NCBI GenBank assembly: GCA_963825865.1
Contig: CAWGVG010000022.1
Location: forward strand, 32,001-96,000
Source: an uncultured Nitrososphaeraceae archaeon
GTDB taxonomy: Archaea > Thermoproteota > Nitrososphaeria > Nitrososphaerales > Nitrososphaeraceae
Length of the DNA: 64,000 nt
Direction: 5' to 3'
Below the pieces are notes generated by a model. The model worked only from the letters and a program-made list of their open reading frames with translations, had not been told where the DNA came from and did no database searches. The translations under genes were made by a program, and so were the position numbers. Positions 1,060 to 8,375 of this stretch are shown piece by piece. Each line of letters opens with the position of its first letter. Within the stretch, counting starts at the first letter, position 1.

Positions 1060-1567
1060 ATGAACAACAAGATATTGGTTTCAATAGCAATGCCTAATGA
1101 AAAGGATTTAGAAGTTATGAATGAATCTGTAAAAACATTGGGATCGTTCGGAGTGTCATATGAGGTAATGGTAATCTCTGCTCATCGAATCCCCGGAACA
1201 AATGATTGAATACGCCAAGAATGCAAAAGATAGAGGTATTGAAGTTATTATAGCGGCAGCAAGCGGTGCTGCACATTTACCTGGGATGATTGCTGCATTT
1301 ACAACATTACCTGTAATTGCTGTACCTTTAAGGTCGTCTCTTCTTGATGGATTGGATTCGGTTCTTTCTATACTACAGATGCCAAATGGGGTTCCTGTTG
1401 CTACAGTGTCAGTTAATGGCGCTAGGAATGCAGCGATCCTCGCTTGTCAAATCATAAGTTTGCACAATGAAAACATTAGACATCAATTTGATAAGTTAAA
1501 AACGAGTTTGGCCATAGAAGTCCAAGAACAAGCAGAGAAGGTTAAATCAAAATCGTCAATTGTATAA
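1060..1567 (+). CDS. purE: PurE-family protein (N5-CAIR mutase-like), divergent; one frameshift near 1190-1200
   Basis: N-part from ATG 1060 reads [20 protein letters not shown]...VISAHRIP and joins ORF 1202-1567 with [32 protein letters not shown]. Confidence 0.85.
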
Positions 1568-1793
1568 TACAATATTGTTTGGTGCATTAGATCCCAAGTC
1601 GCAGTAACATTTCTTTGGATTTTTTTTGATATACTCACCCTACACTAATCGAGGAAATCATCCCTTTTGAGATTTTGTAATTAACTTCATATATCCGAGC
1701 AATCTGTTTTATGATATATGCAATTTTTCATTTTTTATATAGATTAAACTTAAAAAGTTTAGTCAAACATATACTTTAGGAAATGAATATCAA

Positions 1794-2573
1794 ATGATTC
1801 CAGATGACGGCAAACCGATCTTATGGAAAGAGCTGAGTTGGAAGGATGTAGACAAATTTACAAAGACCATGAAGATGGCTATTATTCCAACAGCAGCATG
1901 TGAACAGCATGGTCCACATTTACCATTAGCGGTTGATACAATTGATTGTTATGAGGTGGCAAAGAGAGTTTCTGCAAAAACTGGAGTTCCAGTAGTCCCC
2001 GCCATTGTTGTATGGTTGCTCTCAGAGTCATGGTGCCTTTCAGGAACATTGTCAATCAGGCCCGAAACTATGATCATGACAATCTGTGAAATTGCAGAAT
2101 GGCTTTACAGGAGCAAGATTCGAAAATGATATGGCCGGTCCAATATATTAGCTAGGGAGAACCTGCGTTACGATTTTCCAGACCTTCAAGTAAGAATACG
2201 AAACTGGTGGGCAGCAAACAATGTCTAAACTTGTGGAAAATTGTCCCGTTTTTCCTTCATACATACATGCAACATTGCTGAAACAAGATGCGTATTAGCA
2301 ACAAGACCGGATTTAATAGACATGAAACAAGCAGTTGATGAGGACGACTATGAAACATTCTTTGAATACAGAATGGATCAATATTCAAAATCTGGGGTAG
2401 TAGGCAGAGGTGCAACTAAAGCAACGTCTGAACTGGGAGAAAAACTCTTGGGCATGGTCGTAAAAGAGCTCGTTTCTATTATCCAAAAAGCTCTTAACGA
2501 GGTAAAACCAAAACAGCGGCACCGCAACAACAATAGCAAGAGCAGTAACGTCACAAAAAAAAGTGAGCAATGA
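1794..2573 (+). CDS. Creatininase-family amidohydrolase, several frameshifts, possibly degraded
   Basis: EQHGPHLPLAVD metal motif, frameshifted GCSQSHGAF.GT, HA(N)IAET, SGVVG..ATKATSELGEK; the NGHxxN segment is not found near 2125-2140. Confidence 0.8.
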
Positions 2574-2576
2574 AAG

Positions 2577-2780
2577 ATGTCAGAAAAGACGCGGGCTTAT
2601 ATAATAACTAACATAGGCGCATTGGTAGCCATGATTGTTGTAGTAATCAATATGTTTACTTTTAGAGAAATGTGGATATTATTTACTACAGTAGCAGTTA
2701 TGATTGTCTTAGTGGCATATGCAGTACAAGAGAAACGTAAACTTAAAAGGAAACAAACACAAAACCTAGGGTCGCCATAG
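2577..2780 (+). CDS. Small two-TM membrane protein
   Basis: 67 aa, two hydrophobic segments, basic tail, starts 3 nt after the previous stop. Confidence 0.6.
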   Translation: MSEKTRAYIITNIGALVAMIVVVINMFTFREMWILFTTVAVMIVLVAYAVQEKRKLKRKQTQNLGSP

Positions 2781-3122
2781 CGATAGAATTAAAATCAAGG
2801 CCCTAGCAAAATTGTTGTTGCTGCTAAGATCAAATGAGAAAGCGATATTTGATTAAAAACGGAATGGAGATAATGAAAGAAGTGAGAACAGCAAGATAAA
2901 TTCTAGGAATCACTAACAGATTAAAAATAAAAATTATTTATCATTTTTTCATTTTCATTTAATTTTTAACACAATTTTTTTATGTAAACAATCTCTTTCT
3001 AACATATCATAAAAAATAAAAATTTACATATATCATTATTAATTAGTTTTAGAATTTATATTAATTTACTCAAATTTTATGACATTTATTTATATCTAAG
3101 TTTAGTATGTTGAAATTATACT

Positions 3123-4712
3123 ATGGTCGAAGTAAAAGAAGAATATGCTGAGAAACCTGTTCCACAAAATGCAAGGTTGGGATTTTTAAAACCCGCTATG
3201 GTATGGGCAGGCTTTGCTCACGCATACATTTGCATCTTTATTGGAAGTCAAATAATGGGTGGTTTAGGTGCACCGATAGGATATGCCGCTATTATATCTG
3301 GACAAATATTTTTGTTCGTATATTCCGGCTTAATCGCACACAGAGGTGCTAAATTAGGATTAAATTTCTCAATGATGTGTAAAGCAGCGTTTGGAAAATA
3401 CGGATATATCGTTCCTGTGCTTTTGATATCAGGATTGGTTGCTGGCTGGTTCATCTTCCAAGGATGGTTGGCTGGAGATCTGACCGTGGGTCTTTATGGC
3501 GGCAAGTCTTTTAACGCAGGAGTAGGAAATGGCGTTCTTCCAGGCATTTTAGGTACTACAAGTTTTTGGGCTGGCATATGGTGCGTAGCATTCGGATTTT
3601 TAGCAGTCTCCGGTATGAGGGCCATGGCGTGGTTTGGTAAATTTGCCGTCTTCACGGTAGCGGCTTTAGAAGTATGGATGATATATTCAATATTGACAGT
3701 CGTCGCCTCACACACAGGGGGAAATCCGTTAGTTTCACCAATAGTAGGTAAACCTTGGACATTTGCACTTGGTTTTACGGCATCAGTTGGAACATTTATC
3801 GTTAGCAGTACTATGACAGGTGACTTTGTCAGGTGGACAAAAAATGCAAAGCAAGCATGGGCAGTGACAGGAATTGCTTTTCCAGTCTGCAATTTGGTAA
3901 CGTTAATGATAGGTGCAATCTATACAGCAGTAGCAGGAAAACTTGACTTTTTCTTTGGGTTAAGTGCAGTAGCTCTTGGATTACCAATCATGATTATGCA
4001 GTTGGCAAGCAATGGTTCAGTTTGCGATGGATGTTTGTACAATGCTGGTCAAGGATTCAAGAACATAACATATTACATCTCAAAGGGAAGAATCAATTAC
4101 TCATGGAAGAAGGTAACAATGATTGTGATGTTTGCAGGCGCTGCTATTGCTGTATCAAACTTGATTACCAATATAGTTCCATGGTTACTAACTATAGGAA
4201 CCCTAGTGCCCCTAGTAGGTGGGGTTTTGATAGGTCATTTTTGGATTGTTGCACGAAAGAACACTCTAGACGAACATCTCGTTGCGGCTGATAGAAAAGT
4301 AAATACTCCAGCACTAATTGGCTTGGGAGTTGGACTAGTAATAGCAGTAGTAATTCAATTCACTGCTCCAGACCTGCCAGCTGTTATTGGTGGATTGATA
4401 GGAGGTATTGGAGTATATCCAATTGTCGCAAAAACTACTGGCTACTTCATGAATGGAAGGCTTACTGCAAAAGGACTTGGAGGCAGCATTAGTTATGGGA
4501 CTGCTGGAGCCATGGATAATACAGATACACCAACTTCGCCAGATGCCGGAGCACCTAGTGCACAGACAAAGGACACCTATAATAAAAACACCAGTAGTAG
4601 TGGAAATAGCTTAGGGAGTGGGGGTACTGATCAGATAAGCGCAAAAATAGACAAACTGGTCGGGTTTTTGGCACCATGGTTCGGTTCATCATCGCGTACA
4701 GGAGGATCATAA
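3123..4712 (+). CDS. NCS1-family (cytosine/purine/allantoin-type) permease
   Basis: 529 aa, about 12 TM segments, EYAEKPVP..R start, GLNFSMMCKAAFGKYG, GDFVRW; low-complexity C-tail. Confidence 0.85.
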   Translation: MVEVKEEYAEKPVPQNARLGFLKPAMVWAGFAHAYICIFIGSQIMGGLGAPIGYAAIISGQIFLFVYSGLIAHRGAKLGLNFSMMCKAAFGKYGYIVPVLLISGLVAGWFIFQGWLAGDLTVGLYGGKSFNAGVGNGVLPGILGTTSFWAGIWCVAFGFLAVSGMRAMAWFGKFAVFTVAALEVWMIYSILTVVASHTGGNPLVSPIVGKPWTFALGFTASVGTFIVSSTMTGDFVRWTKNAKQAWAVTGIAFPVCNLVTLMIGAIYTAVAGKLDFFFGLSAVALGLPIMIMQLASNGSVCDGCLYNAGQGFKNITYYISKGRINYSWKKVTMIVMFAGAAIAVSNLITNIVPWLLTIGTLVPLVGGVLIGHFWIVARKNTLDEHLVAADRKVNTPALIGLGVGLVIAVVIQFTAPDLPAVIGGLIGGIGVYPIVAKTTGYFMNGRLTAKGLGGSISYGTAGAMDNTDTPTSPDAGAPSAQTKDTYNKNTSSSGNSLGSGGTDQISAKIDKLVGFLAPWFGSSSRTGGS

Positions 4713-4716
4713 AGAA

Positions 4717-5606
4717 ATGAATCGCAAAAAAAATCTTCCACAGTCCGCAATACCAAATAAAGACTTTGTTTCGGCAGCAAGGGACGAAGTACTCGATAGA
4801 GTTGAAAAAGACTATGAAGAATTCAAAAAAACACACACTTTCGAGTTTCCAACTTGGCTACATGGTCCTCCAAAAGGTAAACTGTTCAAAGTAGAAGTAG
4901 AAGATTGTCCACGCTTTGGTGATAAGGCTTTTGTTGAATTTGACTCAGCTAGGACAGCATTTTTGAGCATTGATATGCAAGTGGATTTTTGCGGTCCAAA
5001 AGGATATGTTGACGTTATGGGATATGATCTTGGATTAACTTCAGCTCCTATAAAGCCAATCATGCATGTTTTAGACACAATAAGAAATGAAACTGACATT
5101 AAAGTAATACACACTAGGGAAGGACACTTGCCAGATCTTTCGGATGCACCATACAACAAAGTCCTTCGAAGCAAAATCATTGGAGACGGTGTAGGAATTG
5201 GCAATATTCCGACAAGGCGGACTAGGACGATTGCTAGTAAGAGGAGAAAAGAATTGGGACATAATTGATGAATCTGTATCCAATTCCTGGAGAATACGTA
5301 GTAGATAAAGCAGGAAAGGGAGGATTTGGCCAGAGCAATTTACCATTGATTTTGAAGAATCTGGGAATAACTCACCTAGTTATTACTGGAATTACTACCG
5401 ATGTGTGTGTACATACTATAATGAGAGAAGCAAATGATCATGGCTATTGGTGTACTCTACTAAAAGACGGTACTGGCGCCACAGATTATGGCAACTACCA
5501 AGCTGCAATAAAGCAAATCAAAATGCAAGGAGGAGTATTTGGTTGGGTATCTGACTCGAATAAGTTCGTTAATGCAGTCAAATCTGCTTTTAAAGGTGCC
5601 GACTAA
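4717..5606 (+). CDS. biuH: Isochorismatase-family cysteine hydrolase with biuret hydrolase signature; two frameshifts (~5214, ~5272)
   Basis: IDMQVDFC, GYVDVMGYD, HTREGHLPDLSD, (frameshifted) GRLLVRGEKNWDII, DKAGKG, GITTDVCVHT, GATD, KMQGGVFG. Confidence 0.8.
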
Positions 5607-7029
5607 TGAGTAGCCTAATTACACTAACAAGCATCAAGACAATGTCTGATAGAATAAGGCACGGAGATTTGTCTCCATCGGAGCTAGTTGAAGCCTGCTT
5701 AGAAAGAATCAAGAAATTTGACTCATCTCTAGATTCTTTCATTACTATTCTTGAAGAACGTGCGCGTCAAGATGCAAAAATAGCTGAAAAACAAATCAAG
5801 GAAGGACTCTGTATTGGTCCTTTGCATGGTATTCCATTTTCAATTAAGGATGTCATCTATGCAGAAGGAGTTAAATGTACTGCAGGTTCAAAAATAATGT
5901 CTGATTACGTTTCAAAAATTAACGCAACCTCTGTTGCAAAAATGAAAAAGGCAGGTGCAATTCTAATTGGCACTAATAATACCCATGAATTTGCTTGTGG
6001 GATAACTAACGTAAATCCGCACTATGGTTCTTCTAAAAATCCCTGGAACATATCAAAAATATCTGGAGGTTCAAGTGGAGGTTCAGCTGTTTCAGTAGCA
6101 GCAGGCATGGTACCTGTATCCTTGGCTACTGACACAAGCGGTTCTATTAGAGTTCCATCTTCACTTTGTGGTGTTGTCGGTCTAAAGCCAACATATGGTA
6201 GAGTCAGCAAATATGGGATTGTTGATTTGGCACCTTCGCTAGATTCATGTTGGGTGTATAACAAGAAGTGCATGGGATGCAGCTGCAGTATTGCATATTA
6301 TTGCTGGTCAGGATCCCCTTGATCCAACTACTGAAGATAAAAAAGTACCTGATTACGTTAAAGTTATCGAAGATGAATCTACCCCCATGAAGAAAATATC
6401 TGTTGGAATACCCAAAGAGGTACTTTTTCGATTATTTGTGGCTAGAAGTAGAAGAGGTGTTCCTTGATTTCGTTGATACTATAAGATCCATGGACATTTC
6501 TGTTTCTGATGTACACATTAGTGGAGCCGACAAAATCTATGAATCGTGGAGACCACTAAGACTTGGGGAATCAGCAGAGATTCACTTGAAATGGTTGCAG
6601 ACAAGATCAAAAGACTATGGTGAAGATGTACGAAGAATGTTGATACAAGGAACTGAAGTATCTGCAGTTGATTACATACGAGCTCACAAATATAGAAAGG
6701 AACTAAGAAATGAATTTGTGAAAGTATTAAAGAAGGTTGATGTGCTTATTATGCCAACTATTCCTCTCACTGCTCCGGGGTTTGACGAGCAAACAGTGGC
6801 TATTGGTAGCAGAACATTACAAATCTATCAAGCCTTAAGTAGAAATACTATTGCATTTGATAATACGGGACTACCTGCGGTTAACATTCCAGTTGGATTT
6901 GGGAAGGACAATATGCCAGTTGGAGCACAAATAATAGGGCCGCCATTTGAAGAAGAAAATATTCTGTCTCTAGCATATGCATACGAACATGCAAATGACA
7001 GTCTTATGAAATTCATGCCACCACTTTAA
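5606..7029 (+). CDS. Amidase-signature enzyme (GatA/AtzE/AtzF superfamily); frameshifts ~6245 and ~6400
   Basis: GPLHGIPFSIKD, GGSSGGSA, TDTSGSIRVPSSLCGVVGLKPTYG, C-terminal GLPAVNIPVG; start overlaps the biuH stop (TAATG). Confidence 0.88.
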
Positions 7030-7326
7030 CCTAAAGCATTTCAACTCAAATAAGAAATATCATTATTTTCGATCTGGCTTTAGGTAGAATATAAACTAGC
7101 TGGATAGGAAGCATCTTTTCTTTCCATTATTTTTGGTTCCACTTTTAATTTTATATGATAATATACTACAAATCCCGTAAATTACTGCTGTTTTAAACGA
7201 TTCATATAATTTTATTAATAACTTAAAGTTTCTCTACTTTTCATAGATAATAATAACAAATATTGTTATTATAGATTCGTTTATATGTATTCTAGGAGAT
7301 ATGCGTCATGTTAGAGATATTTCCAG

Positions 7327-8206
7327 TTGAAGATAGCCCGAATTCTGCAATATGGACAAGAGACTTTTGCGATTGTCAATGAAAATGGAAAGGCGATCAC
7401 GAGGAACGAAATAATCGATGAGACAGACTTGAATTTACCGTCTGATATAGAAGAGTTTATTTTCTCAGAATATGTCCACCAGGTAAAGGATCTTCATTTA
7501 AGCAGACAGTCCTTTATCCATGAGGTAAATGAGTTCCGTCTTCTACCACCTATAAGGAAATCTTTCAAAATAATATGTTTAGCATTCAACTACACTGATC
7601 AAGGAACATGGGTGCGATTCGGTAAGGATCCTCCTAAAGAACCTGTCATTTATTTAAAACCGAGGACGACTCTAATCGGTCCAACAGATGATATAATATG
7701 CCAAAATTTTGTACAGGAACTGGATTATGAGGGGGAGTTGGCACTTGCAATAGGTAAAAAATGTAGTAAAGTAGATGAAGATGATGCCCTCAACTATGTT
7801 GCCGGGTATTTTGTATTAAATGATGTTTCTGCTCGTGATGTGCAATTCATTGACAAGCAATATAGTAGAGCAAAGGGCTTTGATACATTTGGGCCATGTG
7901 GACCATGGCTAACAACTACTGATGAGATCTCTGATCCTTGTAATCTTCATATAACAACGAAGGTGAATGGTGAAACTAGACAAGATTCATCCACAAAGAA
8001 TCTTGTCTTAAAGATAGAAAAAATCATATGGAGCTTAAGCAAGATAATGACACTTGAGTCTGGTGATATAATATCGACCTGGCACACCAAGTGGCACTGC
8101 ACTATCTATGTCATCAAATACAAAATATCTAAAACATAATGATATAGTAGAAGTTGAAATAGAAAAACTTGGAAAAATCACAAACAGAGTCGTATTTGTG
8201 AATTAG
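7327..8206 (+). CDS. Fumarylacetoacetate hydrolase family protein; frameshift ~8078
   Basis: KIICLAFNY, LDYEGEL, NDVSARD, AKGFDTFGPCGP; C-terminus continues in another frame to TAG 8206. Confidence 0.88.
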
Positions 8207-8248
8207 AATACTTATTTTATTATTTTACATCGTCTAACCTGTGTTTAC

Positions 8249-8375
8249 TCTACAAATAGTGTTGTAACTGCAAGAGAATTAAAATCCGTTGATGAAATAA
8301 TGGATGATCAAAAAGAACCATGAGATAGCAATTACAAAGACAAATATTCTCATAAATAGTCCTGCAGTTCGATAG
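8249..8375 (+). pseudogene. 3' relic paralogous to the C-terminus of CDS 111-770
   Basis: Translates STNSVVTARELKSVDEIM...IAITKTNILINSPAVR* versus STSTVVARELKSVNEIM...LTIAKTNIVINSPAVR. Confidence 0.8.

Follow-up and report, generated by a model that had tools for sequence, protein, structure and literature searches.

We analysed a stretch of 64,000 nucleotides (hereafter the window; contig CAWGVG010000022.1, positions 32,001 to 96,000 of the forward strand, assembly GCA_963825865.1) from an uncultured Nitrososphaeraceae archaeon, and found that it holds one more copy of the 'biuH cluster' known from ammonia-oxidising archaea (AOA). Seven + strand genes lie within window positions 1060-8206, and the core of the cluster appears to be a three-gene unit encoding an NCS1 permease, a long-form hydrolase of the biuret hydrolase (BiuH) type and an amidase-signature enzyme, flanked as separate units by genes for a PurE-family protein, a creatininase-family protein, a small membrane protein and an FAH-family protein. 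The reading that we somewhat prefer is that biuret or a near analogue is imported and hydrolysed to allophanate by the BiuH-type enzyme, after which the amidase, or else urease acting on urea, would free the remaining nitrogen.

A cluster of this kind was described in mSystems in October 2025 (PMC12625717), where 19 AOA metagenome-assembled genomes (MAGs) were reported with a biuH distinct from trtA and guuH. In the passages of that paper covered here, the AOA BiuH has an extended N-terminus, biuH lies beside a 'gatA-like' amidohydrolase (distinct from gatA, atzE and hpxY) in 68% of the biuH-encoding MAGs, and FAH, purE, codB, creatininase, bmpA-nupABC and allFGHK are collocated with it. The amidase was proposed there as an allophanate hydrolase, with a call for biochemical tests, and a route from biuret, triuret or carboxybiuret to ammonia was put forward as a genomic prediction without biochemistry; the same passages mention one MAG with two biuH genes and cite Robinson et al. 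2018 for high-confidence biuH in Nitrososphaera. It was the only report on biuret use by nitrifiers found in the literature searched. An organic-nitrogen energy source for AOA by way of this cluster, which the initial annotation had proposed, is already in print there as a genomic prediction, so the idea is not new. Relative to the published AOA clusters, the window has the same gene set and proposed role and represents another genome with that arrangement, whereas purE as a second copy, transcript evidence and bacterial sister clusters do not occur in the passages covered. The present analysis adds a diverged second purE, RNA contigs over both junctions of the core trio and a carboxyltransferase/Na+-pump context in bacteria. 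The idea becomes more testable with genes that are intact in independent assemblies, with those RNA contigs and with a hydrolase clade that is very common in soil metagenomes.

The hydrolase and its clade

The fold of the hydrolase was recognised by PF00857, with 84.5 bits on the C-terminal piece of the window gene and 103-113 bits for intact orthologues. R. johnstonii BiuH (520 bits to PDB 6azo) was the anchor of the alignment in which residues were compared. The passages of PMC7948467 covered here name D36, F41, K142, K145, C175 and Q215 as BiuH residues and give Y47, Y53, S147, D173, T200 and V218 as the six consensus differences between BiuH and TrtA. The window sequence and each of the 47 AOA rows have the triad D36, K142 and C175 together with F41, Y47, Y53, E84, K145 and D173, and T200, Q215 and V218 were found in the window and in every ungapped AOA row (one or two rows were gapped there). 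The motifs GYVDVMGYD, GITTDVC, GATD and MQGGVFG, from which the enzyme had initially been annotated as BiuH rather than triuret hydrolase, were recovered in the window translations and map onto the published BiuH residues. The residue pattern largely agrees with that annotation: besides the triad, F41, K145 and Q215, five of the six discriminators have the BiuH residue, S147 being the exception. A control protein, the TrtA-like protein of R. johnstonii (282 bits to TrtA), carried F, N, A, E, Y and I at the six discriminators, as published, and the guanylurea hydrolase of pMET-2 deviated at K145, T200, Q215 and Y53. The latter was presumably the 25th coding sequence, beside a nucleoside deaminase, which we took from the description in PMC9800807.

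Scores against solved structures were obtained with the intact orthologue of genome G015, which is 84-88% identical to the window hydrolase; the BiuH structures of R. leguminosarum and Herbaspirillum gave 240.8 and 227.3 bits, TrtA gave 161.7 and RutB 78. With the BiuH enzymes (R. leguminosarum / R. johnstonii, 6azo and 5bk6; Herbaspirillum, 6xjm) the window enzyme shares the fold family, the catalytic and binding residues and the BiuH states named above, at about 57% identity over 208 residues, but it differs in its separate sister clade, its N-terminal extension, a G or A in place of S147 and a score below the equivalog cut-off. The partners also differ, as the window hydrolase is accompanied by a GatA/AtzE-like amidase and an NCS1 permease, whereas classical BiuH goes with AtzF and a BMP-type ABC importer. 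TrtA (PDB 6xix, Herbaspirillum sp. BH-1) has the superfamily and the triad in common with the window enzyme, but its residues F35, N41, E160, Y187 and I205 correspond to Y, Y, D, T and V in the window. As a separate observation, G015 seems to carry a second long-form BiuH copy that is cut at contig ends (C111:3473-3934, 197 bits; C250:2-175, 60 bits).

A tree of 83 rows was then calculated by a quick maximum-likelihood search. The AOA sequences formed one group (support 96). It is nested in a clade of 66 rows, here called 'long-form' (support 100), in which Bathyarchaeia, haloarchaea, Bacillota, Chloroflexota, Actinomycetota and other lineages are represented too. As a whole, this clade was sister to classical BiuH (support 96), and the TrtA-like proteins and the pMET-2 guanylurea hydrolase fell outside. 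The expected placement with BiuH stood in so far as the hydrolase's clade is the sister group of classical BiuH and excludes the TrtA-like proteins, but it did not stand in that the enzyme lies outside the characterised BiuH clade. Judged from its sequence, the hydrolase is BiuH-like and belongs to a sister subfamily that is not nested among the characterised enzymes. One record title among the loci looks doubtful, since L026 (WJXE01000281.1) is titled Nitrosopumilales and its hydrolase is 99% identical to those of Nitrososphaeraceae contigs.

The long-form clade is very common in soil metagenomes, where 7815 proteins reached E <=1e-20 among 8000 candidates scored; none of the 120 metagenome proteins listed fell below 79% identity with the G015 orthologue. 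Whole-genome searches of 40 relatives gave a high-scoring hydrolase only in G001 and G015.

Reading frames, gene layout and transcription

The claim that the contig comes from an AOA was confirmed by an archaeal amoA in the same assembly (G000), with 383 bits, and by a related Nitrososphaeraceae cluster. This nearest cluster, L028, comes from a contig whose title names a Nitrososphaeraceae archaeon; over 5.5 kb its DNA is 86% identical to the window, and it has the window's gene order of purE, creatininase, NCS1, BiuH and amidase, with protein identities of 71-96% (96% for the hydrolase). The G000 assembly comprises 4.98 Mb at 81.8% completeness and is indel-rich throughout, which is probably why the completeness is no higher. 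Other genes of the assembly are split as well, namely ureC (C14:158008-159769) and two further amidase genes (e.g. C15:69826-71123), and just 21 open reading frames (ORFs) of at least 180 amino acids were found across the remaining 56 kb of the window. A frameshift anywhere in this assembly should be presumed an assembly error until checked. Elsewhere the window contains ordinary genes (a thiamine pyrophosphate enzyme, SufBD, SufS, KaiC, a histidine kinase and GT2), and no further ureide-linked gene was found in the remainder of the 64 kb.

At least seven frame breaks fall on six genes of the window, and they might be taken for the mark of a decaying cluster, with genuine frameshifts and genes reduced to pseudogenes in this strain. 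In order to judge the breaks, Logan contigs were aligned on positions 1700-8300 from three soil or rhizosphere DNA runs of different studies (X1, X3 and X4) and from a soil metatranscriptome (X13); X1 may be the source sample, and X3, X4 and X13 belong to other studies. The extra base at 5211 was absent from the contigs of all four runs, and that at 5271 was absent in three of the four, X3 having the window's base; once both were left out, the hydrolase frame was open over 295 amino acids. Contigs of X1 and X3 held about 33 additional bases within 2125-2270, in the creatininase-family gene. Over the amidase, the contigs of X1, X4 and X13 were shorter by the needed bases (in X4, 6001-6982 fall on 980 letters, two fewer), and over the FAH gene there was one base fewer (X4, 7310-8126 on 816 letters); a contig of X1 was three bases shorter over 5511-8275. 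Frames were restored by the contigs of the other runs wherever the breaks were covered, as the initial annotation had presupposed, and because of these independent contigs the frameshifts are read as assembly errors. The splitting of ureC and other amidases, which are unrelated genes of the same assembly, the scarcity of long ORFs elsewhere in the window and the amino-acid identity to intact orthologues, which holds at 71-96% across the breaks, argue in the same direction and leave genuine decay extremely improbable. The DNA of the L028 and L027 clusters (84-86% identity to the window, 35-37 gap openings) was too divergent for placing assembly errors.

The six genes listed in the initial annotation were all recovered, co-oriented on the + strand, and the purE-family gene (purE2) is an addition to them (Table 1).

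Table 1. Genes of the cluster in window coordinates, with the basis of each assignment.
Gene or product	Coordinates	Strand	Basis and remarks
purE2 (second N5-CAIR mutase family copy)	~1060..1567	+	One frameshift near 1194; PF00731 139.9 bits and TIGR01162 140.6 bits on the 1202-1567 piece; tblastn with L053 purE in frames 1 and 2
Creatininase-family metal amidohydrolase	1794..2573 (pieces 1794-2129, 2241-2573)	+	PF02633 93.1 and 41.4 bits; ~33 middle bases missing from the assembly
Small membrane protein, 67 amino acids, two-helix	2577..2780	+	ORF; begins 3 nt past the creatininase-family gene
NCS1 permease, CodB-like, not a CodB orthologue; low-complexity C-terminal tail	3123..4712	+	Intact, 529 amino acids; PF02133 77.5 bits
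Long-form BiuH-like isochorismatase-type cysteine hydrolase	4717..5606 (pieces 4717-5268, 5265-5606)	+	Best NCBIfam model of both pieces is BiuH NF050097
Amidase-signature enzyme ('gatA-like')	5606..7029 (pieces 5606-6322, 6291-6467, 6403-7029)	+	PF01425 240.1 and 78.5 bits; frameshifts at ~6245 and 6394-6428
FAH-family protein, HpcE / acylpyruvase-like subgroup	7327..8206 (7327-8139 and a tail in another frame)	+	PF01557 183.2 bits; frameshift near 8080; tblastn with L027 FAH in frames 1 and 2

Tight coupling of the central genes, noted initially, was found again; the permease and the hydrolase are separated by 4 nt (4713-4716), and the stop codon of the hydrolase overlaps the amidase start codon within TAATG (5604-5608). 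AT-rich spacers separate purE2 from the creatininase-family gene (226 nt), the small protein from the permease (342 nt) and the amidase from FAH (297 nt). From this intergenic spacing the cluster is predicted to form four units, of which permease, hydrolase and amidase would be the core operon, and FAH, after its AT-rich spacer, would be a separate transcription unit.

Contigs of the X13 RNA library lie on 3134-6949. A single contig crosses the junction of permease and hydrolase (4475-4744, no differences) and another single contig that of hydrolase and amidase (5417-5767, one difference), so that the junction contigs match at 99-100% identity, and five further RNA runs contain part of the stretch. 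The X13 depth was nil or nearly so at 1700-2141, 2805-3025, 7225-7445 and 7888-8300, a pattern that says nothing on the limits of transcription. These contigs, which cannot show a single transcript, give a hint that permease, hydrolase and amidase are co-transcribed in soil.

The conservation of the arrangement was followed in 80 loci collected with the G015 hydrolase in species-representative genomes, of which 49 were grouped as Nitrososphaerota (AOA) by record title; this grouping agrees with the tree for the 45 of the 49 loci that are tree rows. Many contigs were short, and the counts are minimum counts. Among the 49 AOA loci, an amidase was present in at least 35, FAH in at least 30, a purE-like gene in at least 29 and an NCS1 permease in at least 16, followed by BMP-type ABC parts (at least 13), creatininase (at least 9), allF (at least 9), allH (at least 7) and allG (at least 6). 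The cluster noted initially is accordingly genuine and conserved in synteny. The permease stands directly 5' of the hydrolase in 16 AOA loci, and the median distance is 7 bases over all 21 loci with a permease.

The amidase and the bacterial sister clusters

The amidase translation shows PFSIKD, GGSSGGS and TDTSGSIRVP, which carry the Lys, cis-Ser and Ser motifs, and the intact orthologues measure 473-487 amino acids. The initial annotation had pointed to allophanate hydrolase among the possible families, and this membership was not supported. With the AtzF models (TIGR02713 / NF006043) scores of 234.5-247.7 bits were obtained against cut-offs of 487-511, and the match reached only model positions 418 of 563 and 451 of 600, the C-terminal domain of AtzF being absent from the amidase. 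The AtzE family models (NF006631 / TIGR02715) gave 362.1-370.7 bits against 461, and 348-350 against 425.75, and GatA TIGR00132 gave 354.5-360 bits against 481.1, all below the cut-offs. The enzyme is about equally near to GatA and AtzE. Among solved structures its best relatives were GatA (280 bits) and AtzE (230 bits); no AtzF structure was among the solved-structure matches at E <=1e-40, and the genome has a better GatA-like candidate outside the cluster (C33, 259 and 62 bits).

The window amidase shares with AtzF, and with AtzE and its partner AtzG, the amidase-signature domain with its Lys, cis-Ser and Ser motifs, and it is placed after a BiuH-type enzyme as AtzF is. It differs from AtzF in the missing C-terminal domain, and from AtzE in scores below the cut-offs and in having no small AtzG-like neighbour, as no + strand ORF of at least 50 amino acids for an AtzG/GatC-like partner was found in 7030-7326. 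AtzF was not found in the G000 assembly (81.8% complete). A role of the amidase as an allophanate hydrolase may be suggested from gene position only. A urease is likewise encoded in the genome, its ureC pieces scoring 297 and 540 bits. The non-AOA proteins encoded beside BiuH genes were compared with their AOA counterparts, and identities of 26-31% for the amidases and 27-35% for the NCS1 permeases do not establish that non-AOA loci have the AOA subfamilies, an idea which was dropped.

Outside the AOA, the long-form hydrolase was found in another setting. In 10 of the 31 non-AOA loci it is followed by two genes that match the urea carboxylase model TIGR02712; in L082 this split carboxyltransferase covers model positions 449-769 (467 bits) and 781-1101 (409 bits), and PxpB/PxpC fit far worse. 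A biotin carrier or OadG-like protein and the beta subunit of a Na+-pump decarboxylase come next in five loci (TIGR01109, 207 bits, over the cut-off), and in L064 a urea transporter then follows. NCS2 permeases and PucR regulators lie upstream in bacterial loci. Bacterial loci with the pairing are L064, L069-L072, L074-L076, L078, L082 and L085 (e.g. L082:1324-6496 and L064:9977-16156), and the hosts are anaerobic or soil bacteria of the Chloroflexota, Actinomycetota, Bacillota and Acidobacteriota, together with a MAG titled Desulfovibrio. That last title looks doubtful in its own right, as L064 (JAGVAS010000054.1) bears a Chloroflexota-like cluster. The bacterial set is a candidate Na+-translocating allophanate decarboxylase, an enzyme of which no description was found in the literature searched. 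The bacterial gene context suggests that allophanate is the product, and hence biuret the substrate, of the long-form clade.

Accessory genes and alternative substrates

The cluster purE2 is a diverged second copy, since a housekeeping purE lies elsewhere in the genome (G000:C60:101425-101859, 222 bits). A purE that scores higher than the cluster copy lies elsewhere in both G000 and G015, and G001, which has the hydrolase alone without the amidase cluster, has one good purE. The two copies of G015 are 55% identical, and the cluster copy retains the GAAHLPG loop. In a purE tree, 3 housekeeping copies were separate from 27 cluster copies (support 93). An intact cluster copy (L053) passes TIGR01162 with 185.1 bits against a cut-off of 149.6, though it is not the sole copy of its genome. 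The purE-like gene is linked to the hydrolase in several orientations in 29 of the 49 AOA loci. Copies of purE were also examined at L021:2971-3510 in comparison with L106.

The FAH gene stands directly 3' of the hydrolase in several loci; its intact orthologue is under every equivalog cut-off, and the best PDB match is HpaG with 192.8 bits. The permease reached 126-127 bits with the cytosine permease CodB model NF008241, under the cut-off of 326, and 77.5 bits with the Pfam NCS1 family, which it passes. The small membrane protein (62-67 amino acids, two-helix) lies always 3' of the creatininase-family gene, in 8 of the 80 related loci with tblastn identities of 36-82% (examples are L028:1579-1764 and L033:7877-8071), and no family match was obtained for it.

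The intact creatininase-family orthologue (L028:748-1557) gave 213.7 bits with PF02633. With this gene and an NCS1 permease next to an isochorismatase-family hydrolase, a creatinine route could be imagined in which the hydrolase acts as an N-carbamoylsarcosine amidase, an enzyme of the same superfamily. The scores make such a route most unlikely. The orthologue remained under the cut-off of TIGR04448 (137 against 235 bits) and gave about 74 bits to solved creatininases; the metal ligands E, H, D and H align, as does the catalytic His, but at the E122 ligand position L028 has W. The hydrolase scored 240 bits to BiuH against 44 to a structure related to N-carbamoylsarcosine amidase, and a creatininase gene is present in just 9 of the 49 AOA loci.

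According to the reading that we prefer, the permease would bring in biuret or a very close small ureide, and the Asp-Lys-Cys hydrolase, in keeping with its conserved residues and its relatedness to BiuH, would take off the terminal amide to give allophanate and NH3. The coupled amidase may then split allophanate; alternatively, allophanate may decarboxylate to urea, which would be taken by the genome's urease. The NH3 would pass to ammonia monooxygenase or to assimilation.

Several observations weigh against this biuret reading. The S147 position of the hydrolase has the TrtA state; the window has G there, and of the 47 AOA rows 40 have A and 7 have G. The NF050097 equivalog cut-off of 370 bits was missed by the intact proteins of G015 (276.9), G001 (277.3), L028 (280.8) and L082 (286.7), the window pieces giving 107.6 and 139.5 bits. 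The enzyme has about 50 extra N-terminal residues, so that about 85 residues precede D36 in the long form against 35 in BiuH, and the stem between the long-form clade and classical BiuH is long, with 1.82 changes per column. The tree itself is a quick search with long branches and with support from the Shimodaira-Hasegawa-like approximate likelihood ratio test (SH-aLRT) only, and the original GuuH is absent from it, the pMET-2 guanylurea hydrolase being used instead. No assayed enzyme of the long-form clade was found in the literature searched. The amidase is unlike AtzF and stays under every curated cut-off, RNA libraries can contain DNA, and purE2, FAH and the creatininase-family protein are without a role in a plain biuret route.

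The conserved linkage of these three genes to the cluster suggests that their products act on related N-carboxylated or ring-shaped ureides. It is possible, though we consider it the less likely course, that the natural substrate is another ureide derived from purines or pyrimidines, such as carboxybiuret, triuret, oxalurate or a ureido-imidazole, which the accessory genes would process; the creatininase-family protein might open a ring amide, purE2 might move or remove an N-carboxyl or ring carboxyl, and FAH might cleave an oxalyl-type 2,4-dioxo compound, e.g. oxalurate. The dedicated second purE with its separate tree position and frequent linkage, the position of FAH directly behind the hydrolase, the occurrence of allF, allG and allH of the oxalurate route in AOA loci and the nucleobase-type transporters (NCS1 and BMP-ABC, and in bacteria NCS2 with PucR) are in line with this, and the covered passages of PMC12625717 likewise leave triuret and carboxybiuret possible. 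On the other hand, all known biuret-binding residues of BiuH are kept, including Q215 and the positioning residues Y47, Y53 and V218, which points to a biuret-sized amide as substrate, and the bacterial context indicates allophanate and urea. Genes allFGH are missing from the window, and a search for AllG in the 81.8%-complete genome gave no match. The accessory roles, moreover, are drawn by chemical analogy only, and the ureido-imidazole idea comes from general chemistry alone. The initial annotation had proposed import of a cyclic or acylated ureide as a putative precursor; an AtzD/TrzD ring-opening enzyme was not found in the same 81.8%-complete genome, a weak negative because the search was also silent in every control genome.

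A broader proposal, which we put forward as a long shot, is that the long-form BiuH clade marks a family of biuret/allophanate pathways not described before, whose outcome differs between AOA and anaerobic bacteria. In AOA, the PurE paralogue, FAH and an AOA-specific GatA/AtzE-like amidase could conceivably process allophanate, carboxybiuret and oxalurate. In the bacteria, allophanate could, just as speculatively, pass to a biotin-dependent Na+-pumping decarboxylase made of the split carboxyltransferase, the biotin carrier and an OadB/MadB-type pump. If this proposal were true, purine-oxidation products and fertiliser impurities would fuel ammonia oxidation in AOA, and the bacteria would conserve energy from biuret and export urea by the urea transporter. 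Biuret-type compounds arise as impurities of urea fertiliser, from triazine breakdown and from purine oxidation. If AOA do oxidise ammonia derived from biuret, the substrates of soil nitrification would extend past ammonia, urea and cyanate, an idea already in print.

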